Below are positions 18,277-44,081 of a stretch of DNA of 64,000 nt, one piece after another. Numbering within the stretch: position 1 is the first letter of the stretch; each line of letters begins with the position of its first letter. The position numbers and the translations under genes are program-made. The notes below the pieces were generated by a model. That model made no database searches. It saw only the letters and a list, made by a program, of their open reading frames with translations, and was not told where the DNA came from. This stretch comes from Thermodesulfovibrionales bacterium (GTDB lineage: Bacteria; Nitrospirota; Thermodesulfovibrionia; Thermodesulfovibrionales; CALJEL01). The stretch spans positions 5,062 to 69,061 of the forward strand of contig JAOACK010000005.1 of assembly GCA_026417875.1 (NCBI GenBank), in the 5' to 3' direction.

Positions 18277-18312
18277 AATGAGTACCTCCTTAGAGATTCC
18301 TTCTCTTTTTAA

Positions 18313-27375: not shown

Positions 27376-28809
27376 TCAGAGTTTGAAGATAATCTTTATC
27401 CTTGCACCCCGTTCTGACTCAATCTTCATACATCCATTCAGGTCTTCTCTTACAATGTCCGAGACTATTCTCAATCCTAGATTGGCATCTCTTTCTAAAT
27501 CAAAATCAGCAGGAAATCCGATTCCATTATCGGAGAACTCAAGATTTACCATACCGTCCTGCATATCTGTTATTTTTACATTGATTCTTCCAAATAGTCT
27601 TTCTCTAAAACCATGTTTTATACTGTTTGTTACAAGTTCATTAACAATTATTGCTATATTTGTTGCCTTTCTTGAATCAAGTGATACAGATGATGAGCCT
27701 GTTATTGCGAAATTAAGAAATTTATTTTCTATATTTGAAAGCTGAAGCCCTGATTCCACAATCTTCTCACAGAGTTCTGCTAGATTTACAGTTGAGCTAT
27801 CCTCCTTTGAAAGAAGCTGATGAACATAGGCTATACTTCTTACCCTCATGAGATTATCAATCATAAGTTCCTTTGTTGAAGGGTCATGACACTGCTGAAG
27901 CTGAAGAAGGAAGAGCCCTGAGAGTATCTGGAGGTTATTCTTGATCCTGTGATGAGCATCCCTGCAGATATTCATAATACGTCTGTTCTTCTTTTCCATT
28001 ATTGTATAAAGATGGCTGTTTTCCACTGCAACAGATATGATCCTGGCAATGTTTGTCAGAAGGGATACCTCTTCAATGGATAAATAATGTATCCTGTCAA
28101 GCATCATGCAAACAATTCCTGTAAGCTGGTTCTTGGTTAAGAGTCCGAGACCTATCTTGGTGCTCGGACCCGACACAGCAGAAAGGGTAACACAGTCCTC
28201 TGTCTCTATGAGTTCAGGTCTCTTAAGAGAACCTCTTGGTAAATAATCAATCTGTCTGTAACATTTTAATCCTGAATCACTGTAATAGGTATGATAAACA
28301 GCTATGGGAGGTTTATGTAAAAAAAGCTCCTTGCATATATGAGTGCCAACTGTTAATTCCTTTTCAACAAATTCATGTTCTTCTCCTGCAACTGCCTCAA
28401 AGCTTAGCACCGTGTCAAGCAGAACAGGACATTCAAAGCATACTGTCATCTTTTCTTCAAAATTTTTGGTAGAGCTGTTATCGGGTTTACACTGTGTACC
28501 TGGTATTGACCAGCATCTCTGATCATCGTTGCAATAGGCAGGGCAGGTAACCTTTCCGCATTCCACATATTCCCAGCATTTCTTAAGTCTCTCTGGATTC
28601 AATGACCAGAATACCACAGTCTTTGCATTGAGAATGGGTTTTATAATCTCCAGTATACTGGTGATAAGGGCTTTTGATCTTGGATAGGCTATAATAGCAT
28701 CCGATATAGCAAACAGTGCCTCGAGAGCCTTTTCCTGAGATTCAACAATTGATCTTAACCTTTCTATCTCTTTCAGTTCATTCTCACCTATGGACAATTG
28801 ATAATCCAT
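27376..28809 (-). CDS. Sensor histidine kinase (HisKA_2/HWE-like) with an N-terminal Cys-rich 'CW' module and a GAF-like region
   Basis: 477 aa. The phosphoacceptor box is DAHHRIKNNLQILSGL, and the HATPase region includes ELVTNSIKHGF and DNGIGFP. The N-terminal CWEYVECGKVTCPAYCNDDQRCWSIPGTQC plus CFECP suggests a metal- or redox-sensing module. No TM helices are evident. Confidence 0.8.
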   Translation of the reverse strand: MDYQLSIGENELKEIERLRSIVESQEKALEALFAISDAIIAYPRSKALITSILEIIKPILNAKTVVFWSLNPERLKKCWEYVECGKVTCPAYCNDDQRCWSIPGTQCKPDNSSTKNFEEKMTVCFECPVLLDTVLSFEAVAGEEHEFVEKELTVGTHICKELFLHKPPIAVYHTYYSDSGLKCYRQIDYLPRGSLKRPELIETEDCVTLSAVSGPSTKIGLGLLTKNQLTGIVCMMLDRIHYLSIEEVSLLTNIARIISVAVENSHLYTIMEKKNRRIMNICRDAHHRIKNNLQILSGLFLLQLQQCHDPSTKELMIDNLMRVRSIAYVHQLLSKEDSSTVNLAELCEKIVESGLQLSNIENKFLNFAITGSSSVSLDSRKATNIAIIVNELVTNSIKHGFRERLFGRINVKITDMQDGMVNLEFSDNGIGFPADFDLERDANLGLRIVSDIVREDLNGCMKIESERGARIKIIFKL

Positions 28810-28926
28810 ACTAAATTAATTTTATCAAAATATAAAAGAAAAATAAAACATTTTTAAAAAAGGGTAATTTGCCCCTGAAGATGGGTAAAATAACCCATTT
28901 TAAAGAAATTTTTCACCTGCAAATGA

Positions 28927-28941
28927 TGGCCTATATTTTGC
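28927..28941 (+). promoter_or_regulatory. Candidate sigma-54 promoter upstream of the 13-haem cytochrome gene
   Basis: TGGCCT-ATATT-TTGC has correct GG/GC spacing, but only 14 nt separate it from the ATG at 28955, so the transcript would be nearly leaderless. It is preceded by the palindrome ATGGGTAAAATAACCCAT (28881-28898). Confidence 0.4.
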
Positions 28942-28954
28942 TATTATAGAAAAT

Positions 28955-30211
28955 ATGAGAATAATATCACTGGTTTTATTCCTGATACACCTCTTAAGTT
29001 CAGTATCTTCTTCAGAAGATTCCTGTACAGCCAGATGCCATCAGCCCATGCTCAAGGGAAAGAATATCCATCCACCGGCTTATTCCTGTGAAAGCTGTCA
29101 TTTACTCCTTGGAGACAGGCATCCGGTAAAGAATAAAAAAACCTTTAGTCTTATATCAGAGGTACCATTGCTTTGCTGGACATGCCATCAGGAACCAAAA
29201 CCTTTATCTTCAACCCATCCACCCTTTAAACAGGGACTCTGTACAGGCTGTCATAATCCCCATGAATCCGAGCACAGTGGTCTCCTGAAGGAATCTCCTG
29301 AAAAGGTATGCCTGTCCTGTCATGAAGACAAACATAAAGGAAATTTTCTTCATGGACCATCTGCCGCTGGAGACTGTTTTTACTGTCATGGTGCCCATCA
29401 ATCAGAAAAAAAATTTCTTTTAAAAAATAAGGAGCCAGACCTCTGTCTTGACTGCCATTATGATATCTCAATAGAACTTAAAAAACCCTCTATACATCCA
29501 GCCATTAATTCCGGTTGCTCCTCCTGCCATAATCCCCATGCCTCTAACTATAGAAAATTTCTTATCAATCAGGGCGACAGACTCTGTTTCTCCTGTCATC
29601 CATTGATTGAAGAAAAAATAAGCAGATCAAAATCAGTTCACAGACCTATTAAGACTGATAAAGCCTGTGCATCCTGCCATTTACCTCACTCAAGCTCGGG
29701 CACAAAACTCATGGAAAAGTCTGGTATGGATGCCTGCCTTGAGTGCCATAAGAAATTCATAGATATAAAAAGAGACAGGTATCTTCACGGGCCTATTAAT
29801 AATGGAGATTGCTCTTCCTGTCATGACAGTCATGGAAGCCAGTATAGAAAACTTCTTGTAATGGATTTTCCAGAAGAGTTATATGTGCCTTATAACGAAA
29901 AAGCCTATGCGCTGTGCTTTTCCTGTCATAACAGAGATCTGCTCAGATACCCGGACACAAGTTTTGCCACAGGATTCAGGGATGGAAACAGGAACCTACA
30001 CTATCTTCATGTCAATAAAAAGGACAAGGGCAGAAGCTGCAGGTTCTGCCATACAATCCATGGAGGTACCCTTCCAAAATTAATTGCAGAAAAAGTAAGA
30101 TTCGGAAACTGGGACCTTCCAGTTGGTTTCACTAAAACCGAAACAGGTGGAACCTGCGCACCTGGCTGTCACAGAAAATATACATACGATAGAAAAACCA
30201 GAGCAAGATGA
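28955..30211 (+). CDS. Multihaem c-type cytochrome (13 CXXCH plus 2 CX3CH motifs)
   Basis: 418 aa with a signal peptide. The regularly spaced motifs are CESCH, CWTCH, CTGCH, CLSCH, CFYCH, CLDCH, CSSCH, CFSCH, CASCH, CLECH, CSSCH, CFSCH and CRFCH, plus CTARCH and CAPGCH. The repeats are cytochrome c7/c3-like. Confidence 0.9.
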   Translation: MRIISLVLFLIHLLSSVSSSEDSCTARCHQPMLKGKNIHPPAYSCESCHLLLGDRHPVKNKKTFSLISEVPLLCWTCHQEPKPLSSTHPPFKQGLCTGCHNPHESEHSGLLKESPEKVCLSCHEDKHKGNFLHGPSAAGDCFYCHGAHQSEKKFLLKNKEPDLCLDCHYDISIELKKPSIHPAINSGCSSCHNPHASNYRKFLINQGDRLCFSCHPLIEEKISRSKSVHRPIKTDKACASCHLPHSSSGTKLMEKSGMDACLECHKKFIDIKRDRYLHGPINNGDCSSCHDSHGSQYRKLLVMDFPEELYVPYNEKAYALCFSCHNRDLLRYPDTSFATGFRDGNRNLHYLHVNKKDKGRSCRFCHTIHGGTLPKLIAEKVRFGNWDLPVGFTKTETGGTCAPGCHRKYTYDRKTRAR

Positions 30212-30486
30212 GTATTCCTGAAAGAAAATCCAGAAGGAAAAAGATTTTTCAGGAGATATCCATAAATATACCTGGGGAAGCCAGCAGTAATTTCAAAGGC
30301 GTACTATTAGATATAAGTGAAGAAGGGCTGGGGCTTTCAACAGAATATCCCCTGAAGCCAGGACAGCTAATAGAGATAATAATGCAGGAAGGTATTGTTA
30401 CAGGCACTGTCATGTGGACTTTTAAAAGGAATGGTCTTTTCAGGGCAGGGATCTACAGGAATAGTATAAGAAAGAAATCTATTTGA
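30208..30486 (+). CDS. PilZ-domain protein (putative c-di-GMP receptor)
   Basis: 92 aa with RKSRR (RxxxR) and DISEEG (DxSxxG) motifs at the correct spacing. Its ATG overlaps the cytochrome TGA (ATGA). Confidence 0.7.
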   Translation: MSIPERKSRRKKIFQEISINIPGEASSNFKGVLLDISEEGLGLSTEYPLKPGQLIEIIMQEGIVTGTVMWTFKRNGLFRAGIYRNSIRKKSI

Positions 30487-30515
30487 ATAACCAAATTTAT
30501 TAATGTAATATATTT

Positions 30516-31940
30516 ATGAAACATGTAAACTTTTTAAATCGGGGTCAAAACATGATGACTGCAATAAACAGTCCTGAGGCTTCAGGCTTCAGAAAGAAAG
30601 CCCTTGTTGTGGATGATGAATCCATAATAAGACTTTCACTGAAAAAATTTCTTGAGGATGAGGGATTTATCTCCCTTACTTCAAGCACAGGTATGGATGC
30701 CCTTAAAAAGATTGAAGAGGACCATCCAGATTTAGTAATCCTTGATATCCAGCTTCCTGACTCAAATGGATTAAACCTCCTTAAAACAATTAAGGAGATG
30801 AATCCATCAATAACAGTGATCATGATAACAGGGCATGCAGATGTGAAAGGTGCTGTTGAGGCAATGAAGATTGGCGCCCTTGATTATCTTGAAAAACCAA
30901 TAGATTTCAAAAATCTCAAAGAAACCCTTTCAAGATTAAGGTTTGATGTTCAAGAACATGCTACCGAAGCAGAAGGTTTGATTACCTTAAATCCAAGGAT
31001 GAAGGAGATTTACAGGGTAGCAGAAAGGCTCGCCACAAAGTCAGATGTAACAATACTTGTTCTCGGTGAAAGCGGAACCGGTAAAAATTTTCTTTGCAAA
31101 AAACTCCATGATATAAGTCCTAGAAGGAACATGCCTTTTGTAGAGGTAAGCTGTTCAAACATACCCGAACATCTAATAGAAAGTGAGCTTTTTGGATACG
31201 AAAAAGGTGCCTTTACTGATGCAAAGAACCTGAAAAAGGGTCTTGTTGAAATAGCCCATGGAGGAACCATATTCCTTGATGAAATAGGTGACATGCCCTA
31301 TCCTATGCAGTCAAAACTTCTCACTCTTATTGAAGAAAAAAGATTCAGAAGGATCGGGGGTCTGCAGTTCCTAAGAACAGATGTAAGGATACTTGCTGCA
31401 ACCAATAAAAACCTGCAGCAGCTGGTACATGAAGGAAAATTCAGGCTTGACCTTTATTACAGATTAAATGTGGCTACTGTGGAACTGCTACCTCTTAGAG
31501 AAAGAAAGGAAGATATTCCACTACTGGCAAACAATTTCTTAAAACATTACACCGAAAAATACAGTACCGGTAAGAAAACCTTCACAGAGCAAACAATTGA
31601 GGCAATGCAGAGATACAGCTGGCCAGGAAATATAAGGGAATTAAAAAATCTTGTAGAAAAGCTTGTCATACTTTCAAAATCTTATGAGATTGGAATCCAT
31701 GACCTGCCAGAATATTTTTTAAAAAATGAGACAACATGTCCATCAGAGGAATTAAAAACTTTTGAAAGAAGTTTCGCTAACCTCTCGCTTAGGGACATAG
31801 AAATAGAATGTATAAGAAAAGCCCTCCAAATTGCCAGAGGAAATCAAAAAAAGGCTGCTGAACTGCTCAATATAAGCAGGGATACACTCCGCTACCGCTT
31901 AAAAAAACTAGGTATCAGGGCTTCAGAATACAAAAGGTGA
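30516..31940 (+). CDS. Sigma-54-dependent response regulator (NtrC-family bEBP: REC + AAA+ + Fis-type HTH)
   Basis: 474 aa.
- Receiver domain: ALVVDDE ... LVILDIQLPDSNG.
- AAA+ domain: Walker A GESGTGKN, sigma-54 contact loop ELFGYEKGAFTDA, and Walker B IFLDEIGDM.
- C-terminal HTH: GNQKKAAELLNISRDTLRYRLKKLGI.
The true start may be the internal ATG near 30552. Confidence 0.9.
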   Translation: MKHVNFLNRGQNMMTAINSPEASGFRKKALVVDDESIIRLSLKKFLEDEGFISLTSSTGMDALKKIEEDHPDLVILDIQLPDSNGLNLLKTIKEMNPSITVIMITGHADVKGAVEAMKIGALDYLEKPIDFKNLKETLSRLRFDVQEHATEAEGLITLNPRMKEIYRVAERLATKSDVTILVLGESGTGKNFLCKKLHDISPRRNMPFVEVSCSNIPEHLIESELFGYEKGAFTDAKNLKKGLVEIAHGGTIFLDEIGDMPYPMQSKLLTLIEEKRFRRIGGLQFLRTDVRILAATNKNLQQLVHEGKFRLDLYYRLNVATVELLPLRERKEDIPLLANNFLKHYTEKYSTGKKTFTEQTIEAMQRYSWPGNIRELKNLVEKLVILSKSYEIGIHDLPEYFLKNETTCPSEELKTFERSFANLSLRDIEIECIRKALQIARGNQKKAAELLNISRDTLRYRLKKLGIRASEYKR

Positions 31941-31944
31941 ATAA

Positions 31945-33693
31945 TCATGGATATCTGGAATTTGACTCATTATGGAGCCTTCCGTGACAGTTCAGAACAC
32001 AGGATCCTGAAAAGCTTCCATAGTCAATAAACTTTGGATACAGATTTCCCTCGGCAGGCTGAACAATCCTTGTATCAAAATTTATAAGATGGGTGTGGTC
32101 ACCAGATTCAGGTGATAGCTCAACACCATGGGGATCATGACAGGCTGCGCATGATATAGCATTAAAAAGATGACCGCTATGACCTCCTCTTCCCGAAATA
32201 TTTCTCTGAAAACTCTCATCCCTTAAAATACTATCCCTGTTATGACATCTATAGCAAAGGGCATAATTATTATAGGACTCAGGAATTCCATCATCAGTCT
32301 CGTACCTCTCAGCAAGTATGGGTCTGAACCGCGATCCATGAACACCCCTTGCACCACTTCCTCCTACATCAGGACTGTCATCAGCCTGATGGCAGTCACT
32401 GCATCTGATAATGCTTGAGTATGTGAGGTCAGGTCTAAGGCTGCTGGGGATACTGGGTACAGCAGGATTTTTACCAGCTTCAATCACGGGGTGGTAGGAT
32501 GGGTTTGATGGACTGAACTCTATCCTTGTATTAACAGTATTTACTACCCTTGGCACAAAAGGAATTGAACCGCTTGAATCACCGTGACATTTAAAACATA
32601 ATTCATATTCATAAGTGACCTCCCTTACAGGGCCACCATTTCTGTCAATACCTTTTACACCGAGAAGCCTTCCTCCCGCATAGGGTGGGAGAGCATTACC
32701 ATCATTTACGGTATGAGGATTATGGCAATCAACACATTCCACATGTCCCCAAAGGGGAATCTCTTCTTCTGGCTTATGATAGGATGCAGTTATTCCTGTT
32801 GTTGTATCTTCAACAGGGTGTCTTGATATTCTTTGAAACTGAGAATAGACATCCTTTTGAGCTACATTTCCATTATGACATTTATAACAATTTCTTTCCT
32901 CCTCCTGATGATAAAGCAATCTCTCTCTTCCTTGTGCCCCATGAGGTGTATGACAGTTTTCACATCCATTTTCAGATACTGTAAGCCATCCAAAATCCGT
33001 TCCTCTTCCAGTAAAGGGCCAGGGATTAGGTTCAGCGCCATTCCAGACTGAAACAGAGGTCTTGTGGCTAGATGATTCCCAGCGATTTTTCATGTGGCAT
33101 TTAAGGCACAACCCTGAATACCTGTTATCAACAGCAAGAAACTTTCCATATTGATTATTATGGGGATCATGACAGGTGGAACAATGTATATTATACTGGA
33201 AGCCATAAAAGGTAAGGTCCCGGGGTGGCATGGGCACTATCTCGGGATTTGAAATCGAATCAAAATAGGAAAAAGAAACAGGATGGTCATCAGAAAGGTC
33301 AGTGCCTATATAGGACCTTCTATCGAGTGTGATCCTACCAGCAACCTCTATTCCACCCATTGGTCTCAGGACCATCCCCACAGCAACTATGCCATCATGA
33401 CAGCTAAGACAGAGTCTTGAAGGACCTTCAGGTTGTGCTGGAGACGCCCTGAGGGTTGAGCTCGCGTAAATATCATAATTCAGAGGTTCAAGTTCTCTGT
33501 TCCATAATGGAGTGAGGGGTTTTGCATTGTGAGGTGTATGACAGAACACACATATCCTTGTCTCTGAAAGTGCCTTTATCTCGCCAGGACCTGTAACTGA
33601 TAGATTGTGTTTTGTTCCGACAATACCGGTTGAAGCCTGAAGAGAGGATACCGTAACGAATGCAATAATCAACTCGATGACTATTTTTTTCAT
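31945..33693 (-). CDS. Multihaem c-type cytochrome (11 CXXCH plus 1 CX3CH)
   Basis: 582 aa with a signal peptide. The N-terminal signature is GTKHNL...ICVFCHTPHNAKPLTPLWN. The remaining motifs are CLSCH, CSTCH, CLKCH, CENCH, CYKCH, CVDCH, CFKCH, CSDCH, CYRCH, CAACH and CVLNCH. It is the last gene of the operon, and its start overlaps the upstream stop. Confidence 0.9.
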   Translation of the reverse strand: MKKIVIELIIAFVTVSSLQASTGIVGTKHNLSVTGPGEIKALSETRICVFCHTPHNAKPLTPLWNRELEPLNYDIYASSTLRASPAQPEGPSRLCLSCHDGIVAVGMVLRPMGGIEVAGRITLDRRSYIGTDLSDDHPVSFSYFDSISNPEIVPMPPRDLTFYGFQYNIHCSTCHDPHNNQYGKFLAVDNRYSGLCLKCHMKNRWESSSHKTSVSVWNGAEPNPWPFTGRGTDFGWLTVSENGCENCHTPHGAQGRERLLYHQEEERNCYKCHNGNVAQKDVYSQFQRISRHPVEDTTTGITASYHKPEEEIPLWGHVECVDCHNPHTVNDGNALPPYAGGRLLGVKGIDRNGGPVREVTYEYELCFKCHGDSSGSIPFVPRVVNTVNTRIEFSPSNPSYHPVIEAGKNPAVPSIPSSLRPDLTYSSIIRCSDCHQADDSPDVGGSGARGVHGSRFRPILAERYETDDGIPESYNNYALCYRCHNRDSILRDESFQRNISGRGGHSGHLFNAISCAACHDPHGVELSPESGDHTHLINFDTRIVQPAEGNLYPKFIDYGSFSGSCVLNCHGRLHNESNSRYP

Positions 33694-34667
33694 CTCTCCC
33701 TCTTCAGTTTGAATACCTGAATCCTCTGGTTATAGGTATCACATATATAAATATTCTCTGAAGTATCAATAAATATACAGGAAGGTAGCCAGAACTCAGC
33801 CTCACCCTTTCCCCTGGCACCCAGGGTGAGGAGAAATTCCCCTTTTTCATTGAAAAGCTGAACATTATCAAAAAGGGCATCAACCACATAGATTATCCCG
33901 TCCCTGTCAGCTCCCACTCCCTTGGGCATGGCAAAGTCTCCAGAACCATTTCCATGGTGACCGAAGAGATTTATAAGTGAACCGTCCTTTCTGAAAATCT
34001 GTATTCTGAAATTCATTGCATCAGTAACATACAGTCTGTCAGAAAGAGCTATATAAGTCGGAAAATTGAATTTCCCCGGCTCCTCTCCCCTTCCACCAAA
34101 GTGAAAAAGAGGCTTACCATCATGATAAACTGCACTCACAACATTTCTTAAAGTATCAACAACATAAAGGATTCCGGTCTCTCTGTCACAAACAAGCCCT
34201 GTAGGTTTGCTGAAACCATCTATAAATCCTCCATATCTACCTTCACTATCATATATAAAAACCTTTCCACGTAGAGAATCACTTACATAAAGTCTGTTAC
34301 TTTCATCAAAGGCAACACCAGCAGGTGAAAGAAGTTCACCGGAATCTATTTTGAAGAGGGTAATATATCTGCCATCCTCGGGTATAAAAAGATGAACACA
34401 TCCGCAACCACCATCAGCTATAGCAATCCTTCCATCACTTCCTTTTGCAAATGCCAGGGGTTTAATAAGCCTCACTTCCGTTCTACCAGTAAAAAAAGAA
34501 CGTAGGATATAATTTTTTTCCTTAAAACCATAAATCATTCCACCATAAACAATCTTACCGGACTGGTGGTACCATGAATGAGTCTTGGAAGAATCCTCAT
34601 GAAGAATGGACCATGAAGATGCACAGGCTGAAATGAAAAATATAATTAAAACAGGCAGCAGCTTCAT
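33690..34667 (-). CDS. NHL-repeat six-bladed beta-propeller lipoprotein
   Basis: 325 aa with a lipobox (FFISAC). NHL-type blades repeat throughout (PTGLVCDRETGILYVVDTLRN, PKGVGADRDGIIYVVDALFDNVQLFNEKGEF, IYICDTYNQRIQVF). Confidence 0.8.
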   Translation of the reverse strand: MKLLPVLIIFFISACASSWSILHEDSSKTHSWYHQSGKIVYGGMIYGFKEKNYILRSFFTGRTEVRLIKPLAFAKGSDGRIAIADGGCGCVHLFIPEDGRYITLFKIDSGELLSPAGVAFDESNRLYVSDSLRGKVFIYDSEGRYGGFIDGFSKPTGLVCDRETGILYVVDTLRNVVSAVYHDGKPLFHFGGRGEEPGKFNFPTYIALSDRLYVTDAMNFRIQIFRKDGSLINLFGHHGNGSGDFAMPKGVGADRDGIIYVVDALFDNVQLFNEKGEFLLTLGARGKGEAEFWLPSCIFIDTSENIYICDTYNQRIQVFKLKRER

Positions 34668-35578
34668 CTCTCTAAAACCTTCAATCTTTCTTCGTATATC
34701 TTTATCTCAGCACCTTTTTTTAATTCTTCTTTCCATTCTAACTCCCTCTTTTTCAATGCATTGGGGAAAAGCCTGTTTTCAAGATACACCCTCATCTCCT
34801 CAAGAGATGGGTACCTCTCCCCAGAATAATCAACAAGTTTGATAATATGCAAACCGTCAGTGGACTTAATCAATCCCGATAATTCTCCTGGTTTTAGCTT
34901 TTTTGCCTCTTCATAAAGTTCCTTGTGTTTCTCCCTGTTGAGCCTTATCTGGTTTATTATGAATGTTCCATCCTGAACAAGCCTCCAAGGATCACCATTA
35001 TATTCATTTTTTATTTTTGTAAGGAGTAATTCTGCTTTTTTTTCCATATCATCAGTATCTTTCAGAAATCTCAAATCAACAACTATAACCTTCTCTGGAA
35101 GTTTAAATTTCCCTTTCTCCTTCTCATAGTCAGCCTTTATATCATCCTCAGTAATCACGACTTTTTTTATAACCTCCTCAACATAAAGCATCTCCAGAAG
35201 AAGTTTTCTTTCAATTAATGAATAAAGTGATTCCTCTGATAAACCCTCTTTTTTAAGATAATCCGAGAATCCTCTTTCTCCAAGTCCTATTTTCAGTTCC
35301 ATAATTGCATTTTTAACATTTTTTTCATCAACTGTCATGCCAAGCTTTTTTGCTCTCTGAAAGGCTAGCTCTTCTATGATAATATTCTCAAGTATTTCTC
35401 TTACAGAGTCAACTGACGATGAGCCGACCTTTTGAGACAACAAATTCAGAAAATTAGAAAGATATACGGGATTTCCGTTTATCTCAGCAACGACGGCCTC
35501 TGGAAGCCTCTCCTCTGCAGAAATAGTATGAGCTAACAGAAGAACAATTATTAAACCCATAATAAAAAATCTAATCAT
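34664..35578 (-). CDS. SurA/PrsA-like parvulin-type peptidyl-prolyl isomerase (periplasmic chaperone)
   Basis: 304 aa with a signal peptide, a SurA-N-like helical region and a parvulin core (LKPGELSGLIKSTDGLHIIKL). Confidence 0.72.
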   Translation of the reverse strand: MIRFFIMGLIIVLLLAHTISAEERLPEAVVAEINGNPVYLSNFLNLLSQKVGSSSVDSVREILENIIIEELAFQRAKKLGMTVDEKNVKNAIMELKIGLGERGFSDYLKKEGLSEESLYSLIERKLLLEMLYVEEVIKKVVITEDDIKADYEKEKGKFKLPEKVIVVDLRFLKDTDDMEKKAELLLTKIKNEYNGDPWRLVQDGTFIINQIRLNREKHKELYEEAKKLKPGELSGLIKSTDGLHIIKLVDYSGERYPSLEEMRVYLENRLFPNALKKRELEWKEELKKGAEIKIYEERLKVLER

Positions 35579-35586
35579 CCTGCCTC

Positions 35587-37596: not shown

Positions 37597-37631
37597 TTCT
37601 AAAAAATCTCGTCTCCATAAATTCTGTAAAA

Positions 37632-38165
37632 TTAATTCTTTAAAATAAATCTATCATTCCCTGAATGGGCATCATGACAGTCAAGACATCTGAGGTCTGA
37701 ATACATATGAACGTCATTCTTGAGGATATCGTTTTTATCATGGCAGTACAGACAGAATTCTCTGGGTTCTGATACAAGCATATAGGCATAGCCTGAACTA
37801 TGAGGCAGATGACAGACCCTGCATCCACCTGCAGCGATTGGACCGTGAATCCATCTATTTTCAATATTCATATCATGACAGTAAAGACATAATTTTTCAG
37901 CAGGCATTATTAATTCATTCGTATCCCTTTTATGACAGCCATAACACATCTTTGCAGCATAGGGACCATGCTCTGTAGGTCTGCCCAGCAGCTTTTTTTC
38001 TGTAGAATCACCGTCCTTTTCTTTTTTTGCAGTTGGCTCAGGCTCTGTTATTTTTGGCGGGGGTACACCATCAAAGAAGAAAGAGAGTATCCTGTATCTC
38101 TTCACTGGGTCAGAGCATCCAGAGATGAACGCTACCATCAGATATATCATCATGAGTCTTTTCAT
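37632..38165 (-). CDS. Pentahaem c-type cytochrome lipoprotein
   Basis: 177 aa with a lipobox (FISGCS). The five motifs are CYGCH, CLYCH, CRVCH, CLYCH and CLDCH. Confidence 0.85.
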   Translation of the reverse strand: MKRLMMIYLMVAFISGCSDPVKRYRILSFFFDGVPPPKITEPEPTAKKEKDGDSTEKKLLGRPTEHGPYAAKMCYGCHKRDTNELIMPAEKLCLYCHDMNIENRWIHGPIAAGGCRVCHLPHSSGYAYMLVSEPREFCLYCHDKNDILKNDVHMYSDLRCLDCHDAHSGNDRFILKN

Positions 38166-38177
38166 GAGTTAACTGAT

Positions 38178-39332
38178 TCAGTCCGATTTTTCACCCTCCG
38201 GTAAACTCTGTCTTTCAAAGACCTGCTGTTTCTTTCTTACCTCCTCCAGAAGTTCCTGATCTGTGCGATACCTCACACCTTTTTGTTTGCCAAAGGCATA
38301 TACATTCACCATCCTGTCACCGAACTGACTTGTAACTATTATAATGTATTCAATTTCAAAATCAGGTGCAGCATACTGTCTGAAATAATCTATATGTTTA
38401 TAATCAATCACTACCTCTGCAGGAAGGATGAGCCTTCCTGGTCTTGTCCCTCCACCACCAAAGAACATGAGAAGAAATCCATCCTTATTAAATATCTGGA
38501 CATTAAAGAATGCAGCATCAACAACATATATCCTGCCTTCTTTATCAACAGCAACACCTCTGGGTCTTGCAAAATGTCCGAGATTAACACCGAGCCTTCC
38601 TACTGTTCCCTTAAAATGACCATCCCTGTCAAATTTTACAATCTGGAACCTTCCTGCATCGCTTACATAAAGAATACCTTCTCTGTCAAAGACAAGATTT
38701 GTTGGTCTGTCAAGCCATTCAGATATATCACCCTTTCTACCAAAGGTTCTGTTGAGTTCACCAGTGAGTTTATCAAATACCTTTATCTCACCGTTCTTTA
38801 TATCAGCTACATATACTTCATCGCCAAAGGCAACGGCATCAACTGGTTTCCAGTCTCCTATAATGCCGAAGGATTTTACATAAAAATCATTTCTATCAAA
38901 CACAACAACCTGTTTTCTAACGGGGTCAGATACATATTTATTCCCCTCTTCATCTATGCTTATATTAACAGGTTGCATGAGCTTTCCCTGACCTATTGCA
39001 CCCTTAAGGTATTCATATCTTTTATTTCTTAAATCAAAGACAATAACACCTGCATTAGTATCACATACATAGATCTTTCCATCGTATATAGCTACTCCAT
39101 AGGGTTTATCAAGCCTCCTTATATCCTCCTTTTCGCCTGTTATGAATTTTTCAAAACTGGATTTTGGAGGTTCAACATCCTTTGCACCTGTAAAGGACAT
39201 GAGAAATTGAATTCTTGGAGGATCGGGCGGTTCAGGAAAAAATACAGCAGGTTCTTTTATCTCCTTTTGGGGTGCAGCGCAAGCAGATATGATAATTATT
39301 AGAAACAGGAGCCCTGATTTTAACGTTGGCAT
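38178..39332 (-). CDS. NHL-repeat six-bladed beta-propeller lipoprotein
   Basis: 384 aa with a lipobox (IIISAC). Its blades include PYGVAIYDGKIYVCDTNAG, PTNLVFDREGILYVSDAGRFQIVKFDRDGHF and PRGVAVDKEGRIYVVDAAFFNVQIFNKDGF. The long plus-strand ORF 38283-39032 is its antisense shadow. Confidence 0.85.
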   Translation of the reverse strand: MPTLKSGLLFLIIIISACAAPQKEIKEPAVFFPEPPDPPRIQFLMSFTGAKDVEPPKSSFEKFITGEKEDIRRLDKPYGVAIYDGKIYVCDTNAGVIVFDLRNKRYEYLKGAIGQGKLMQPVNISIDEEGNKYVSDPVRKQVVVFDRNDFYVKSFGIIGDWKPVDAVAFGDEVYVADIKNGEIKVFDKLTGELNRTFGRKGDISEWLDRPTNLVFDREGILYVSDAGRFQIVKFDRDGHFKGTVGRLGVNLGHFARPRGVAVDKEGRIYVVDAAFFNVQIFNKDGFLLMFFGGGGTRPGRLILPAEVVIDYKHIDYFRQYAAPDFEIEYIIIVTSQFGDRMVNVYAFGKQKGVRYRTDQELLEEVRKKQQVFERQSLPEGEKSD

Positions 39333-39388
39333 TATTAATTTAAAAATTTATTATTATATTCTAAACACTGAAATTATAGCATTTAATT

Positions 39389-39420
39389 AAAAAAGAAGGG
39401 AAGGGGAAACCCTTCCCTTC
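39389..39420 (-). terminator. Rho-independent terminator after the tetrahaem cytochrome gene
   Basis: On the minus strand the sequence reads GAAGGGAAGGG-TTT-CCCCTTCCCTTC followed by TTTTTT, starting 10 nt after the stop codon. Confidence 0.8.
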
Positions 39421-39429
39421 TAATTGAGT

Positions 39430-40218
39430 TTAAGGTGTCTTCTGTCCTTTTGCGTGGCAGGAAAGACAGAGATTGCTGTTAGAGTCGCTCACGTATAGCA
39501 ATTTCTCACCGCTATTTCCAGTGTTATGAACTGCGTGGCAGGTTGAGCATTCCATCTTTCCATTCCAGAGATAGTTGCTAACAGGCACTGTGCCGAAGGT
39601 TGCTGTTGCAGAGTCATAGATTTCAGGATCTTCAGCAGCAACACTGTCATAGTCAAAACCGATTGGATGATGGTTGAGGAGATAGCCATCTTTACCAATT
39701 TTATACTGATCTGCAATAACGCTTCCTCCTGAACTCCTTGATCTTGAATCCTGTGGCGCATGACCATACTCATTAACTGCAACAGTTCCATCATGGCAGC
39801 TTAAGCAGAGAAGTGATACAGAGCCCACTCTGTCAAAATAATCAACGGACTGTGGAGCCTTTGATCCTGCGATGGGTTTATCAGGTCCTGGATCATAGGG
39901 TGCGAAGACCTGAGTGGTGACAGCATGGTTCCATAACGGAAGATAGGTATAGTCAGCAGGTGCCTCAGGACCTGTACCTGCTCCGGCTGCTGTGCTTAAC
40001 TTATATGCATGGTGAGGTGCATGACACCAAACACAGATTCTGTTCAGATAATCAGCTGGTTGAGCAGGATAATTTCCGCCTGGCTGACCCTGCCTTAAAT
40101 CATGGGGTGTGCCATTTATACCTGTACCAGGTGTATAGTTTCCAGTAAAAGCCATTGCTACAGCACATACGAGAATAACCACTAGTAGGCTGAACAAAGG
40201 TATTAAAGACCTTTTCAT
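39430..40218 (-). CDS. Tetrahaem c-type cytochrome (secreted)
   Basis: 262 aa with a signal peptide. The motifs are CVWCHAPH...PLWN (the same N-terminal signature as the 582-aa cytochrome), CLSCH, CSTCH and CLSCH. A strong RBS (AAGGAGG) lies upstream. The codon composition is visibly more G/C-rich than in neighbouring genes. Confidence 0.9.
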   Translation of the reverse strand: MKRSLIPLFSLLVVILVCAVAMAFTGNYTPGTGINGTPHDLRQGQPGGNYPAQPADYLNRICVWCHAPHHAYKLSTAAGAGTGPEAPADYTYLPLWNHAVTTQVFAPYDPGPDKPIAGSKAPQSVDYFDRVGSVSLLCLSCHDGTVAVNEYGHAPQDSRSRSSGGSVIADQYKIGKDGYLLNHHPIGFDYDSVAAEDPEIYDSATATFGTVPVSNYLWNGKMECSTCHAVHNTGNSGEKLLYVSDSNSNLCLSCHAKGQKTP

Positions 40219-40292
40219 CTGAAAACCTCCTTACTAAACTGAACTGCTCAATGAGCAGCCGAAACCCTTTCCTGACAGGCACATATTATTTA

Positions 40293-40307
40293 GCAATTCA
40301 TGTGCCA
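40293..40307 (-). promoter_or_regulatory. Sigma-54 promoter for the tetrahaem cytochrome gene
   Basis: The plus strand reads GCAA-TTCAT-GTGCCA, which is TGGCAC-ATGAA-TTGC(T) on the minus strand. This is a perfect consensus, about 75 nt upstream of the ATG at 40218. Confidence 0.7.
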
Positions 40308-40369
40308 GACACAAAAATAATGAATTTTAAGCAAAATATCCTTTAAACCTCTCTTCACTTTCTCATCAG

Positions 40370-40568
40370 TGGTGAAATAACCCATATTAAATGGGTGAAA
40401 TTCTAACTTAATTGAGTTTAGTCATAAATTTGATTGGGTGATAGAAATTACGCCATCTTTAGAGATAGAAACTGGATGAAAAGAATTGCCTGCGAGCCTG
40501 TAAGTCTTTTTATTAATTCTCACATTCCTGACTATAAAATTTTACAAAAATAGGGTGAAATCACCCAT
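40370..40568. promoter_or_regulatory. Cluster of GGGTGAAAT(A/C)ACCCAT-type palindromic sites (candidate enhancer/UAS for the sigma-54 activator)
   Basis: Sites are TGGTGAAATAACCCAT (40370-40385), ATGGGTGAAATTC (40391-40403), GGGTGATAGAAAT (40436-40448) and GGGTGAAATCACCCAT (40553-40568). They lie between two divergent sigma-54 promoters, 65-100 bp from each. Confidence 0.45.
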
Positions 40569-40630
40569 GCTGGTCAGATTAAGATAATTATAATATTTTA
40601 AAAAAGAATAAAAAATTAGGAAATTTATCC

Positions 40631-40646
40631 TGGCATGCTTATTGCT
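40631..40646 (+). promoter_or_regulatory. Sigma-54 promoter for the large extracellular cytochrome gene
   Basis: TGGCAT-GCTTA-TTGCT lies about 100 nt upstream of the ATG at 40746, which has an AAAGGAGG RBS. Confidence 0.65.
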
Positions 40647-40745
40647 TAAACAAATGATGAGCCCTTAATCTGACAGGCTTGGAGGTGAAATTCAAATTTT
40701 AACTTAAAAATTTCCTTATTCAAGAAACCTTAAAAGGAGGAACGC

Positions 40746-41141
40746 ATGAAGTTAGTTTGCTGGTTAATAAGCCTGATAGTTCTATCAGGGACAATATTTG
40801 GGGCATCGGAGGGAATGGCTGCCCATCCTGATGTAGCTTTAAGGGATGCAGATGGAAACCTTATTCAACCAGGTTCCAATATACCCTATTCTCCAAAGCA
40901 GACCTGTGGAACTAGCCAGTGCCATGATACCATAGCCTCAAGATACGGGCTGAATAACATCTATGAGCACGGAGTGCTTTATGCACAGAAGGATCACGGT
41001 TCAGGTTCACCATCATACACAAATCCCTACAGTGTGCTCTATCCAGAACATGGAATAACATCCGGCTTTCACTTCCAGCAGGGAAGGGATGTTCCATGGG
41101 GAGATACAGAGAACATATTACGGTGTCCCGTCATTCACTAA
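40746..41141 (+). CDS. N-terminal fragment of a large multihaem cytochrome (signal peptide + CX4CH site)
   Basis: 131 aa with a signal peptide (MKLVCWLISLIVLSGTIFGASEG) and TCGTSQCHD. It ends in ...GFHFQQGRDVPWGDTENILRCPVIH*. The +1 frame is open from about 41059 and carries the plausible continuation QRTYYGVPSFTNSPGMYGKY. Confidence 0.6.
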   Translation: MKLVCWLISLIVLSGTIFGASEGMAAHPDVALRDADGNLIQPGSNIPYSPKQTCGTSQCHDTIASRYGLNNIYEHGVLYAQKDHGSGSPSYTNPYSVLYPEHGITSGFHFQQGRDVPWGDTENILRCPVIH

Positions 41142-41187
41142 CTCACCAGGAATGTATGGCAAGTATTGACCACCTTCAAACCGCCAG

Positions 41188-44010
41188 TTGGCGGACCTAA
41201 CAGAAAGTACACCTGCCAGGTTTGATATGAGCAGCTTTGAGTGGGCTTACGGAAATTGCGCATGGTGCCATCCAGGTGGTGGAAACCTTGAATATGACAG
41301 GGCAGGTTACAGATATGATAACAGACCGAGTGGTCTTATACCTGGTGGAACGGCAAATCCACAGAAGGATAATCACAAAGGTGATTATTATATTTTTGTG
41401 GCTGGAACAGGTATTGTATCAAGGGTAAGTGCCTGGATTAATCAGGGTGTTGGAGAAGCAGACTGCCTTATGTGTCACCTCAATTACCAGAATGCAGGAA
41501 GATTTGCAAATCTGGAGAGAAATTATACTGTGGCTGAACCACCAGCAATAGCTGATGACCCGAAGACACTTAAAGGCCTTAAATTCTCACCAACACTCGG
41601 TCTTGCGAGGACAGGATTGCTTACTGGAATAACCACTGGTTCACCAAATATAAATCCAAGCTTGAGTGGCTGGTCATGGGCAAGCACCACTATTCCCGGG
41701 TCATGGATAACAATGACACCTCCAAAGGAAAACTGTTCCATATGTCATTTTCCTGACAGAAGCTGGTTCGGTCCTTCTGGTTCAGCAAACAGAGGTCCTG
41801 CTGACAGACCTCTTGGATTCACGAGTTTTCAGAAGAGAATTCCAGCAGGTACTGTAACAGATGATGATGAAATAGCTGGTGTTGGTGGAAAGGATGGAAA
41901 GAATGACGCAGCCTGGGACATTGTAAATGGAAGGGTTGAAGGTGGCAAGAGAGGAGAATCCATAAATGATCCCAATAATCCAGATGCCCATATGGATAGA
42001 GGATTTGTATGCGCTACCTGCCATTATACTCTCGGAGATGAAGATGGAGAACTCTACGGACCAAAAAGAGATGCTGCTGGCAACATCGTCGCTCCTCAGG
42101 TAAATATAAAGAAAATAGACCATCAGTTTGCAAAAGGTGATGCCTTCCAGGATACAAAAGGAATGGACCAGGTAGACTACACTGTTACCTGTGAAAGCTG
42201 CCACATAACAAAGACCCATCCTAATGCAGGAAATGCACCTACACCCACACATGCTGGATTCCCATCAGTACACTTTGTAAAGATACATTGCAAAACCTGT
42301 CATATTCCCGTAGTGAATGGTCCGGTAAAACAATTCTTAGCTGATTTCTCAGCAGGACCATACAGGGGATTTGCAAGGGTTCAGTCAGTTGAGATGCCTT
42401 CAACAGGAATAGGTCTTAAGCCCCTTAAGACCTGGCAGAAAAGAGAGGATGGCATAAAGCTCGTACCACACGGTACAATGGCTGCCAGTGTATGGGTAGA
42501 TGGTTCTCCAGCTAAACCCACATTCCAGAGATATGCAAGGGCTGTGGCTGTAAATTACAGGGCATTTGTGGGAGATGCAAATGGAGATGGCCTTTATGAC
42601 TGGCCCCTTAACAGACCGCATGATGGTGGCACAAGGGTAAGCCATATAGTTAATGATCCTCCTGAGATTGCTGGTTTTGTGGCAAGGCTTAATAACCCAA
42701 CAGGTTTTGGAATCTCAGGTGTTCCATCCATATCTGATCCTGTACTCAACATATACAATATAGTATTCAGCATAAGCCACAATATCCAGCCTATCACAAG
42801 GGATGCTCAGGGAAAACCCGTACCAGGTCCTCTCAAAACTTATACATTTACTAAACCAGATGGTACAACTGGCACCTTCCAGAGAAACACCGGACCTCTT
42901 GGTATAAATGGTTGTGTAGAGTGCCATTCCAGTTCAGATCCAAACTCAAAAAATTACAGCCCTAAGTCTATTGGTTTCTTTGATATGGATTACACACTCT
43001 ATCTAAACTCATCAAGACTTACCCAGACATGCACGGATAGTGCTGGAAACATTGATCCTAACTGCACAACTGGAAAAAGAAGGGTGAGATATGTGCTTAG
43101 CTATAAAAATCCAGATGGAAGCTCAAACATCATAGACCTTGGTTCAAGGGCCGCTCACGGTCAGACTGTTCCAAATACCGTTAATCAGGCTGAGGTAATG
43201 GGATACAGCTCCTATGATGTAACCATGCTCACAGATCCTGCAACTGCAGGTATACCAAAACCCAGAGCCCAATTCGCCTATTCCCTGAACGGTCTTAACA
43301 TCTCTGTGAAAACCTCTACCGCTTCATGTTCAAGCACCAGCTGTTCCTATAACTGGTCATTCGGTGATGGCTCGACTGCATCAGGACTGACTGCCTCTTA
43401 TACATATTCTCAGCCGGGCACCTATACAGTTAAGCTCACTGTTGTTGACAACATCAATTCCACCCAGGATGTTAGATCTATCCCGGTGTCAATTTCAACA
43501 TATGCTGCAAACCGTCCACCTCAGGCAAGCTGGAATATCTCAGTGAATCAGAACTCCTGGACTGTATCTATTACTGATACCTCTACTGATCCAGATGGTA
43601 ATCTTTCAAGCATTACAATTAACTGGGGAGATGGTTATGTACAGACTCTTTCACCCGGAGCTACTGTGACCCGTACCTATGCAACACAGGGCTCTTATTC
43701 CATTACACTGACTGCAAAGGACTCCACTGGCGCTAAGTCCTCTGTATCACAGATTGTCTCCTTCTCCAGATTCAAGATCACTGGATCTGTTACTAATTCA
43801 AGTGGTAACCCGGTTGGCGGCGCAACCCTTAAACTCTATAAAGGCTCAACACTTCTGAAAACCTCTTACTCAACTACAGCAGGCTCTTTCTCCTTCACTT
43901 ATCTTAAACCCGGTACATACACAATTAAAACCACCAAATCTGGTTACACATTCCCTGATACAGAGGTAACTGTTGGACCTGACCAGTCTGTGACCATTCG
44001 GGCTCAGTAA
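41188..44010 (+). CDS. Main body of the large extracellular multihaem cytochrome (7 CXXCH, two PKD domains, CarboxypepD_reg-like C-terminal domain)
   Basis: - 940 aa as listed in the track, which uses a TTG start with no signal peptide.
- The frame is actually open upstream to the UGA at 41167-41169 and, beyond it, to about 41059.
- Haem motifs: CAWCH, CLMCH, CSICH, CATCH, CESCH, CKTCH, CVECH.
- PKD-like repeats: YNWSFGDGSTASG...YTVKLTVVD and INWGDGYVQTL...YSITLTAKD.
- C-terminal domain: ITGSVTNSSGNPVGGATLKLY...GTYTIKTTKSGYTF. Confidence 0.75.
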   Translation: MADLTESTPARFDMSSFEWAYGNCAWCHPGGGNLEYDRAGYRYDNRPSGLIPGGTANPQKDNHKGDYYIFVAGTGIVSRVSAWINQGVGEADCLMCHLNYQNAGRFANLERNYTVAEPPAIADDPKTLKGLKFSPTLGLARTGLLTGITTGSPNINPSLSGWSWASTTIPGSWITMTPPKENCSICHFPDRSWFGPSGSANRGPADRPLGFTSFQKRIPAGTVTDDDEIAGVGGKDGKNDAAWDIVNGRVEGGKRGESINDPNNPDAHMDRGFVCATCHYTLGDEDGELYGPKRDAAGNIVAPQVNIKKIDHQFAKGDAFQDTKGMDQVDYTVTCESCHITKTHPNAGNAPTPTHAGFPSVHFVKIHCKTCHIPVVNGPVKQFLADFSAGPYRGFARVQSVEMPSTGIGLKPLKTWQKREDGIKLVPHGTMAASVWVDGSPAKPTFQRYARAVAVNYRAFVGDANGDGLYDWPLNRPHDGGTRVSHIVNDPPEIAGFVARLNNPTGFGISGVPSISDPVLNIYNIVFSISHNIQPITRDAQGKPVPGPLKTYTFTKPDGTTGTFQRNTGPLGINGCVECHSSSDPNSKNYSPKSIGFFDMDYTLYLNSSRLTQTCTDSAGNIDPNCTTGKRRVRYVLSYKNPDGSSNIIDLGSRAAHGQTVPNTVNQAEVMGYSSYDVTMLTDPATAGIPKPRAQFAYSLNGLNISVKTSTASCSSTSCSYNWSFGDGSTASGLTASYTYSQPGTYTVKLTVVDNINSTQDVRSIPVSISTYAANRPPQASWNISVNQNSWTVSITDTSTDPDGNLSSITINWGDGYVQTLSPGATVTRTYATQGSYSITLTAKDSTGAKSSVSQIVSFSRFKITGSVTNSSGNPVGGATLKLYKGSTLLKTSYSTTAGSFSFTYLKPGTYTIKTTKSGYTFPDTEVTVGPDQSVTIRAQ

Positions 44011-44019
44011 AAAAATTGA

Positions 44020-44079
44020 CCGGGCAGAAATGCCCGGCCTTACCTCCCATCCCGTTGCCCGGAGCCATTGGCTCCGGGC
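44020..44079. terminator. Bidirectional terminator pair between convergent genes
   Basis: Hairpin 1 is CCGGGCA-GAAA-TGCCCGG (44020-44037), flanked by an A-run on the plus strand, which is a T-run for mutS2. Hairpin 2 is GCCCGGAGCC-ATT-GGCTCCGGGC (44057-44079), followed by TTTATTTT for the cytochrome gene. Confidence 0.75.
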
Positions 44080-44081
44080 AT

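Follow-up and report, generated by a model that had tools for sequence, protein, structure and literature searches.

The multihaem cytochrome island

This account concerns a block of genes for multihaem c-type cytochromes and their companions in a metagenome-assembled genome (MAG) of the Thermodesulfovibrionales, phylum Nitrospirota (GCA_026417875.1, contig JAOACK010000005.1, positions 5,062-69,061). That 64-kb stretch, analysed at its full length, is referred to as the window; the block examined occupies window positions 27376-44010. At its centre is a core of seven minus-strand genes (40218 to 31945), tightly spaced and with overlaps, which quite probably specifies an extracellular cytochrome module of the omcE/uet type. 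To one side of the core lie plus-strand genes for a 13-haem cytochrome, a PilZ protein and a sigma-54 activator, with a histidine kinase gene beyond them. To the other side, and divergently oriented, lies the gene of a large cytochrome with eight haem sites and a predicted selenocysteine (Sec).

In the order of their transcription, the core genes encode a 4-haem cytochrome (262 amino acids (aa); 39430-40218), an NHL beta-propeller protein (384 aa; 38178-39332; Pfam NHL, lipobox ISAC), a 5-haem cytochrome (177 aa; 37632-38165; lipobox ISGC), a predicted outer-membrane beta-barrel (669 aa; 35587-37596), a periplasmic SurA-like parvulin peptidyl-prolyl isomerase (PPIase; 304 aa; 34664-35578; Pfam Rotamase_2 and SurA_N_3), a second NHL protein with a six-blade propeller (325 aa; 33690-34667; Pfam NHL and DUF5128, lipobox ISAC) and an 11-haem cytochrome (31945-33693). 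Lipoboxes mark both NHL proteins, and the 5-haem protein as well, as lipoproteins. An earlier note, made from the letters of this DNA, had counted 40 CXXCH motifs in five cytochrome open reading frames (ORFs; 13 + 11 + 5 + 4 + 7), and exact counting returns the same figures; one CX4CH and three CX3CH motifs come in addition. The pair of NHL lipoproteins, the parvulin, the kinase, the PilZ protein, the NtrC-type activator, the 669-aa barrel and the three sigma-54 promoters that the same note had proposed are all borne out by the domain searches, structure prediction and comparisons that are described below.

Two OmcE-like proteins

The 4-haem protein, a candidate filament subunit, is by its sequence a homologue of OmcE, the tetrahaem subunit of an extracellular cytochrome filament in Geobacter. 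It matches the Protein Data Bank (PDB) chains from the filament that OmcE forms in G. sulfurreducens (7TFS_A, E=3.1e-15) and from D. soudanensis OmcE (9YUQ_N, E=6.4e-11). Each of the four CXXCH motifs finds its counterpart in the alignment, as do OmcE's conserved distal His motifs; the matched stretch runs through HDL, CxxCHxPH, PLWN, CLSCHDG, (D/H)HP and CxxCHxVH to the terminal CxxCH.

The 11-haem protein, which is UetJ-like, consists of an OmcE-like tetrahaem module (residues 2-202) with a 7-haem extension. The alignment of that module covers the whole OmcE chain, with E=2.7e-25 against 7TFS_A and E=5.4e-25 against 9YUQ_N, and the module is 29% identical to the 4-haem protein of the window.

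The outer-membrane barrel

The 669-aa protein, which is 100% identical to NCBI entry N2257_02020, has no match in Pfam or NCBIfam. Its AlphaFold2 model, built on an alignment of 54 sequences, has a mean pLDDT of 88.8 and shows ~28 long antiparallel strands, with a beta-rich insert at about residues 373-461. The chain ends in ...RKLF, and this C-terminal Phe, together with an invariant LPEHPYNL motif, is common to ~127 close homologues. On the model, then, the protein is a very large outer-membrane barrel. Foldseek sets the model beside the largest barrels known, with LptD, the FimD usher, TonB-dependent receptors and MtrB among its matches; their TM-scores are low, which fits a predicted barrel of differing strand number. 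A profile search of 1.84 billion representatives places 1,981 clusters (at 50% identity) in the family at E<=1e-3 and 542 at E<=1e-30; with clusters in that number and no curated family, this is a big and unannotated family of barrels.

Conservation and synteny

A scan of one genome per species finds 46 loci that encode the barrel, in MAGs of the Nitrospirota, the Thermoanaerobaculia/Acidobacteriota, the Binatia and the Desulfobacterota; synteny of the core covers some 45 species. The scan used the single peptide pattern LPEHPYNL, and the taxonomic range that it yields is therefore a lower bound. Essentially all loci with sufficient flank keep the order [large PKD-tailed cytochrome]-OmcE-like-NHL-5-haem-barrel-(PPIase)-NHL-11-haem-[13-haem]-[activator], the 325-aa NHL gene being syntenic and the 5-haem gene syntenic in nearly all loci. 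Since this synteny spans phyla, the core genes belong together. Of the components, the first NHL protein (384 aa) has diverged least (49-62% identity across phyla, 85-87% in L004 and L005, the loci of the closest relatives) and the barrel most, with about 30% across phyla. The PPIase is found in the Nitrospirota and Desulfobacterota loci and is missing from most of those in Acidobacteriota and Binatia. The 13-haem gene stands outside the conserved core, and in many Nitrospirota loci it is absent or elsewhere.

The block as a whole is supported as a coherent extracellular electron-transfer module with its own sigma-54 activator and PilZ protein. In that respect the earlier note's interpretation is supported. 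The kinase gene was considered as a conserved part of the module and rejected, because it adjoins the cluster only in L004 and L005.

In one locus of the Thermoanaerobaculia (L002, 9958-12726) a decahaem cytochrome and a porin of the MtrB_PioB family directly adjoin the omcE-type cluster, so that two different outer-membrane electron systems are adjacent there. The PF11854 match in that locus belongs to a separate neighbouring gene; the 669-aa barrel has none.

Relation to described electron-transfer clusters

The minimal omcE cluster of Petersen et al. (2025) comprises an OmcE subunit, two multihaem cytochromes, two beta-propeller lipoproteins and a large beta-barrel, and homologues of this type have been noted in five phyla, the Nitrospirota among them (bioRxiv 10.1101/2025.10.22.684050). 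Compared with the omcE clusters of the Desulfuromonadia (the G. sulfurreducens GSU0618 region and D. soudanensis WTL), the core in the window has the same content plus a PPIase: a tetrahaem OmcE homologue with four CXXCH and four conserved distal His, an adjacent large predicted barrel, two NHL lipoproteins with ISAC lipoboxes and two further cytochromes, of 5 and 11 haems. The differences are the SurA-like PPIase in the core, the OmcE-like head of the 11-haem cytochrome and the absence from the window of a glycosylation gene block. The omcE operons inspected in that study contain no OmcE-like protein with extra haems (bioRxiv 10.1101/2025.10.22.684050), and neither the wiring by sigma-54, activator and PilZ protein nor a neighbouring selenoprotein is described there.

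The best match of part lists is with the uet cluster, uetABCDEFGHIJ, which 'Ca. Tenderia electrophaga' and some Gallionella carry (Eddie et al. 2022; bioRxiv 10.1101/2022.05.06.490989; PMC10734462). It specifies a tetrahaem cytochrome (UetA), a PPIase (UetB), a barrel (UetC) for which 28 strands are predicted, NHL proteins (UetH and UetI) and an undecahaem cytochrome (UetJ) (bioRxiv 10.1101/2022.05.06.490989). All six kinds of protein are present in the window, the match being one of kinds and not of sequences. The gene order differs, however, and the trihaem c7 proteins UetD, UetE and UetG and the cupredoxin UetF have no counterpart either in the window or in the 46 loci related to it; their position is taken by one 5-haem lipoprotein.

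The island thus belongs to the OmcE/Uet type of cluster, which has been described before, and is not of the Mtr, Pcc or Ext type. The earlier note had not recognised the part list as any characterised conduit of the Mtr, Pcc/Omc or Ext type, rightly as to Mtr, Pcc and Ext; the view that the parts match no characterised system is contradicted by the OmcE homologue and by the published omcE and uet sets. A syntenic counterpart among characterised systems, which the note had named as a discovery that would overturn its proposal, has in part been found in these clusters.

The likeness to uet raises the question of direction. The uet cluster has been proposed for electron uptake, and its hosts are aerobic Gammaproteobacteria and Betaproteobacteria. 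The window module might run in reverse, so that a cell respiring sulfate or sulfur would draw in electrons from minerals, Fe(0), cathodes or partner cells. What speaks for uptake is that the part list equals that of uet, which was proposed to serve this function in cathode-oxidising Tenderiales and occurs also in iron-oxidising Gallionella, and that clusters of NHL proteins with multihaem cytochromes exist in the corrosive sulfate reducer D. ferrophilus. In strain IS5 of the latter (DFE_0448-0451 and DFE_0461-0465; compared by description) these clusters are likewise proposed to exchange electrons at the outer surface, but no porin is reported in them and deletions have no Fe(III)-reduction phenotype, a result that weakens the analogy. 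Moreover, multihaem wires are reversible and the sequence sets no direction, and the window lacks both the trihaem c7 proteins and the cupredoxin that uet has. We regard the uptake reading as doubtful, though less so than the two readings of the island as conduit or as respiratory enzyme that are taken up below.

A comparable logic is seen in the osc (omcS-companion) machinery for OmcS in G. sulfurreducens (Shen et al. 2025, Cell Chem Biol), which, as summarised in citing work, includes a prolyl-isomerase chaperone (OscH), channel-like secretion proteins (OscEFG), a factor for nanowire morphology (OscD) and extra cytochromes. A filament-forming cytochrome is encoded there together with these companions, although OmcS is hexahaem and unrelated in sequence to OmcE. 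OscD is also reportedly beta-propeller-like; the paper citing that work gives its role in nanowire morphology only.

The 13-haem protein invites comparison with MtrCAB and Pcc. Its gene (28955-30211, plus strand) encodes a signal peptide and, besides the 13 CXXCH, two CX3CH motifs, and the product is a periplasmic cytochrome of the MtrA/DmsE-like kind. It matches the NCBIfam DmsE family TIGR03508 (E=7e-38) with 130.6 bits, short of the cut-off of 192.2, and chain A of the Mtr complex, PDB 6R2Q, with E=1e-18; by the curated threshold it is a relative of the DmsE family and no member. (The name field of 6R2Q_A reads 'Cystathionine beta-synthase'; the 333-aa chain behaves as MtrA and the label looks like a mistake of the depositors or of annotation.) Like MtrCAB and Pcc, then, the island has an MtrA-like protein and a large barrel. 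The whole might accordingly be read as a porin-cytochrome conduit without a nanowire, in which the barrel would permanently house the 13-, 5- and 11-haem proteins as a wire across the membrane, as in MtrCAB, and the OmcE-like protein would be a surface cytochrome, monomeric or a small oligomer. The barrel is MtrB-sized or larger, MtrB is among its Foldseek matches, and the authors of the uet work proposed a porin-cytochrome complex (bioRxiv 10.1101/2022.05.06.490989). On the other hand, the Pfam scan finds no MtrB_PioB match in the barrel, which has ~28 strands in its model as against 26, and a decahaem cytochrome of the MtrC/OmcA type is absent from the window, which has NHL proteins and a PPIase. 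The position of the 13-haem gene outside the conserved core also tells against a conduit, as does the retention by the 4-haem protein of every conserved haem ligand of filament-forming OmcE; the terminator that follows the subunit gene (see below) suggests a stoichiometric excess of this protein. A conduit lacking a filament therefore strikes us as unlikely, and we keep to the omcE/uet-type module in what follows.

Predicted sigma-54 promoters, activator and terminators

Three of the four matches to TGGC-N7-TTGCW in the window lie directly upstream of cytochrome genes, and each of the three is found again at the orthologous position in both L004 and L005. They are TGGCACatgaaTTGCT at 40292-40307 (minus strand) for the OmcE-like gene, TGGCATgcttaTTGCT at 40631-40646 (plus strand) for the large cytochrome gene and TGGCCTatattTTGCT, with TGGCCT...TTGCT, at 28927-28942 (plus strand) for the 13-haem gene. 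More widely, a -24/-12 match falls no more than 200 nt upstream of the ORF for the OmcE-like protein in 13 loci of the Nitrospirota. The 13-haem promoter ends only 12-13 nt before the ATG, a spacing that is kept in L004 (~14640-14700) and L005 (~14710-14771), and its constancy in three genomes suggests a leaderless or nearly leaderless mRNA. A scan for sigma-70 promoters did no better than on shuffled sequence.

The fourth -24/-12 element, TGGCACggcagTTGCT, is at 18312-18327 (minus strand), just inside the listed 5' end of a 1,401-aa PilY1-like ORF, the first in a run of genes for type IV pilus minor pilins; the element probably lies upstream of the true start of this ORF.

With one mismatch or none, the 16-bp site GGGTGAAATnACCCAT is found at only three places in the window, 28883, 40370 and 40553, each upstream of a cytochrome promoter. 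In the 527-bp divergent spacer between the OmcE-like and large cytochrome genes, activator-type sites were found at 40370 (TGGTGAAATAACCCAT), 40393 (GGGTGAAAT) and 40553 (GGGTGAAATCACCCAT), within 40370-40568; the GGGTGAAATnACCCAT sites there precede their promoters by about 65-80 bp. The one at 28883 precedes the 13-haem promoter by about 30-45 bp, and at 28860-28898 GGGTAAAATAACCCAT is paired with a degenerate copy ~21 nt away, a tandem arrangement that is found at the same place in L004 and L005. Second copies at ~21 nt are a feature of the GGGTGAAATnACCCAT sites generally. The exact sequence GGTGAAAT occurs seven times in the window, four of them inside the divergent spacer, and the GGGTGAAATnACCCAT site is conserved in L004, L005, L047 and other loci.

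The candidate reader of these sites is the NtrC-type activator encoded at 30516-31940 (plus strand; Pfam Response_reg, Sigma54_activat and HTH_8). Its sigma-54 contact loop (31179-31260) reads GAFTDA, against the canonical GAFTGA, and the cluster-linked activators of 19 other loci in three phyla all have GAFTDA, GSFTDA or GAYTDA; the common loop marks them as a dedicated subfamily. With correctly spaced -24/-12 elements, upstream sites and an adjacent AAA+ activator all present, a predicted sigma-54 regulon with a dedicated activator is supported, and the NtrC-type protein probably binds the putative GGGTGAAATnACCCAT sites and so switches on all three units.

The 13-haem, PilZ and activator genes appear to form one sigma-54 unit. 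Since the activator gene would then lie inside a unit that is itself sigma-54-dependent, positive autoregulation is implied. An ATGA joins the stop codon of the 13-haem gene to the overlapping start of the PilZ gene (30208-30486, plus strand; 92 aa; PF07238, 32.8 bits, cut-off 22.5), whose product retains, as read from the sequence, both c-di-GMP motifs, RxxxR (RKSRR) and DxSxxG (DISEEG). The kinase (27376-28809, minus strand; 477 aa; Pfam HisKA_2 and HATPase_c) is soluble and is likely, though unproven, to be the partner of the activator. Its Cys-rich N-terminal segment has a weak two_CW_domain match (E=1e-4, below the cut-off), and this segment is the sole ground on which the kinase might be thought to sense redox state.

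Following the OmcE-like gene is a hairpin resembling an intrinsic terminator (39394-39421, minus strand; z = -3.4), with a 12-bp GC-rich stem and then a U-run. A GC hairpin and T-run follow the OmcE-like orthologue in 20 of the 21 loci examined, in four phyla; the sequences differ, many copies having a GGGGAATGG...CCATTCCCC core in common. The arrangement parallels that of major pilin genes, and by that analogy the subunit may be made in excess over its machinery; the conserved terminator also lends indirect support to the idea that the subunit polymerises. A second terminator-like hairpin (44056-44080, plus strand; hairpin scan) follows the large cytochrome gene at the right end of the island.

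The large octahaem cytochrome and a predicted selenocysteine

The "7-haem" gene of the earlier note (41188-44010, 940 aa) does have seven CXXCH motifs, but it is the 3' part of a longer, interrupted gene that starts at 40746. The signal peptide comes from a preceding 131-aa ORF, as does a CX4CH site, and the two ORFs are one gene (40746-44010, plus strand) with eight haem sites, for a secreted cytochrome of ~1,087 aa that ends with two PKD domains and a CarboxypepD_reg domain. The orthologues in L004, L005 and L045 are in a single frame except for one in-frame TGA, at the same codon as that at 41167 in the window. The frame is shifted in this assembly only, by a 2-nt gap near 41106 (GATA--CAGAGA, against GATACCCAGAGA in L075, where an intact large cytochrome is 78% identical to the window copy). 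Either the assembly is wrong at this point or the gene carries a genuine inactivating mutation. A frame shift at the GGGG run at 41097-41100 had been considered and was rejected, the alignment with L075 placing the gap near 41106.

The UGA (41167-41169) is followed by a SECIS-like hairpin, CCGCC-AGUU-GGCGG (41181-41194), which begins 11 nt past it and has G-U in its loop. Such a spacing and loop type are what one expects of a bacterial SECIS, to judge by the element of E. coli fdhF. The TGA and the hairpin are present in all of 45 distinct sequences, fetched with a degenerate DNA pattern that allowed any third base (TGN). In 44 of these AAC CGC CAG TTG GCG G is invariant, and the one exception is a compensatory change from C-G to U-A. 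Synonymous sites 18, 21, 24 and 27 are invariant, whereas those of the intervening Pro-Pro-Ser (sites 6, 9 and 12) vary freely. In three homologues the codon is TGT (Cys); the peptide that these encode, C-PPSNRQLA, is the same, but its codons differ and there is no hairpin, and in 13 of 18 full-length homologues a Cys stands in the column aligned with the UGA. At the sequence level, the evidence for Sec in the large cytochrome is strong.

Could the TGA be an ordinary stop, the 131-aa and 940-aa ORFs being separate genes or the remains of a dead one? The public annotation has only a downstream 927-aa ORF (P0241), and the frame is disrupted near 41106 in this assembly, as already mentioned. Neither point accounts for a TGA that all 45 distinct relatives have at one and the same codon, with the frame continuous through it, for four invariant synonymous sites that form the hairpin while the three before it vary, for a compensatory pair change, or for the absence of a hairpin from Cys-type homologues that have the same peptide. 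The downstream ORF, moreover, has no signal peptide of its own. We hold termination at this codon to be highly improbable. Two negative results are to be recorded beside the prediction of Sec: an Rfam scan of the window gave no match, so that no curated SECIS or riboswitch model applies, and selA, selB, selC and selD are all absent from the 64-kb window.

The only characterised Sec-containing multihaem cytochrome that we found in the literature is MccSep (GSU2937-2936, ExtKL), a pentahaem polysulfide reductase whose Sec-type members are reported as frequent in the Thermodesulfovibrionia (Sci Adv 2026, PMC13510729). Both are multihaem c-type proteins with one Sec specified by UGA and a SECIS-like hairpin just downstream; in both families Sec-type and Cys-type members coexist, and the local motif is U-P-x-x-N-R. 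They differ in that the window cytochrome has eight haem sites against five, is ~1,087 aa long and carries PKD and CarboxypepD_reg domains; its Sec141 falls between haem sites 1 and 2, while that of MccSep is in the C-terminal Ig domain; and it has no spare Cys to serve as a haem ligand, MccSep having a His/Cys-ligated haem. Sequence and profile searches of the PDB, with the window cytochrome and a 52-sequence profile as queries, gave no match for the haem domain of the selenoprotein, not even to MccSep (9WT8, 9WT9), which the library contains. An AlphaFold2 model of a Cys-type homologue (P0247, pLDDT 86.3) yields a Foldseek list swamped by Ig and PKD domains, in which the sole match to the haem part is octahaem tetrathionate reductase, 1SP3, a weak one (E=3.5e-5, TM 0.40); a sub-threshold NCBIfam match of the large cytochrome agrees with this resemblance. 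A catalytic role on chalcogen substrates would rest on analogy and is not a finding.

These comparisons nevertheless suggest a reading in which the island is concerned chiefly with chalcogen (S/Se) respiration, the selenoprotein acting as a surface reductase of polysulfide/S0 or of selenite and the other proteins feeding it electrons. The conserved Sec/Cys site, the precedent of a Sec-dependent multihaem polysulfide reductase that is common in the Thermodesulfovibrionia, and the weak resemblance of the haem domain, in fold and in HMM, to octahaem tetrathionate reductase are all in its favour. Yet no similarity to MccSep was detected in a library that contains it, and the haem domain has no spare Cys for His/Cys ligation of a haem. 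Most omcE-type core loci, furthermore, are without the large-cytochrome family, which only L004, L005, L045 and, in part, L044 have; Cys-type members are found away from any omcE-type cluster; and the gene is frame-shifted in this assembly. That the island mainly serves this purpose seems improbable to us.

The family to which the large cytochrome belongs occurs both beside omcE-type clusters and elsewhere. The copies in L004 (646-3093) and L005 (2-3163) are only 28-29% identical to that of the window, against 66-90% for the rest of the cluster, so that the gene seems to have been swapped or to be diverging fast, as is expected for a surface-exposed protein. Large cytochromes that stand beside distant clusters, such as one of 1,091 aa in L001, were considered as orthologues and rejected; they have only the PKD tail in common.

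Flanking genes

The genes that flank the island are unrelated to it: a fusion of acyl-CoA synthetase and acyltransferase on one side and, on the other, MutS2, which is the next gene past the large cytochrome gene and is on the opposite strand. Farther out in the window are genes for type IV pilus minor pilins, an RND pump and peptidases. The window also encodes a bacterial eRF1-like protein of baeRF family 10 (8868-9989, minus strand) and a small protein made of an RF-1 domain alone (47244-47657, minus strand).

A model of the module

A model can be drawn that goes beyond the observed homology, fold, synteny and motif conservation. The OmcE-like tetrahaem protein would be made in excess, through strong firing of its promoter and partial termination after its gene, would be exported through the barrel or mounted on it, and would polymerise outside the cell into a haem wire. 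The barrel would be the secretion pore or the anchor, and the SurA-like PPIase and the NHL propellers would be periplasmic factors of folding and assembly. Electrons would cross the barrel by way of the 5-haem lipoprotein and of the 11-haem protein, which would dock onto the filament with its OmcE-like head, and the MtrA-like 13-haem protein would link the periplasm to this path. The divergently encoded octahaem selenoprotein would be a catalytic end-point or a contact protein at the surface. The sigma-54 activator would coordinate the three transcription units.

Several points weigh against the assignment of the core as an omcE/uet-type extracellular module, or at least against this elaboration of it. 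The likeness of the barrel, NHL proteins and PPIase to their Geobacter and Tenderia counterparts rests on part lists, and the PPIase, being missing from most of the Acidobacteriota and Binatia versions, is not essential to the core. OmcE resembles the 11-haem protein more closely than the 4-haem protein, so that either of the two might be the one that polymerises, if one does. What OmcE filaments do physiologically is disputed in Geobacter itself, where strains deleted for omcE still reduce Fe(III) oxide and produce current (PMC13194489). As to regulation, the four -24/-12 matches in the window, against 1.04 expected, are equalled in 4 of 100 shuffles, so that the count by itself is weak evidence. 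Finally, polymerisation, localisation, the direction of electron flow, the sensing of c-di-GMP and of redox state, and co-expression are what we infer about this system.

A more ambitious proposal, in which two elements of the island are read together, is put forward tentatively; we think it possible but would not yet bet on it. The large cytochrome would found a second, hitherto undescribed family of multihaem Sec proteins, octahaem, with a PKD/Ig tail of the surface type and unrelated in sequence to MccSep, and would act, where an OmcE-type wire ends, as its catalytic terminal oxidoreductase; the 11-haem protein would be the adaptor at the base or tip of the filament.

Implications

The OmcE/Uet-type module reaches well beyond the relatives of Geobacter, into uncultured Nitrospirota, Acidobacteriota (Thermoanaerobaculia) and Binatia, and its barrel family alone amounts to ~2,000 clusters at 50% identity. 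The island also offers a concrete and testable scheme of regulation for such modules, with a sigma-54 promoter, a 16-bp activator site, a GAFTDA activator and a terminator placed after the subunit gene.

The predicted octahaem selenoprotein appears to be the most novel element of the island. If it is real and new, it would represent only the second family of Sec-containing multihaem cytochromes, and one whose gene is consistently rendered wrongly in annotations, either split in two or cut short. The OmcE-headed 11-haem protein, taken together with the conserved regulatory architecture, would rank second in novelty. It bears on how filaments are anchored or initiated: according to structural work on OmcE, an adaptor for the base or tip is a component missing from Geobacter-type operons, and the 11-haem protein may fill that role.

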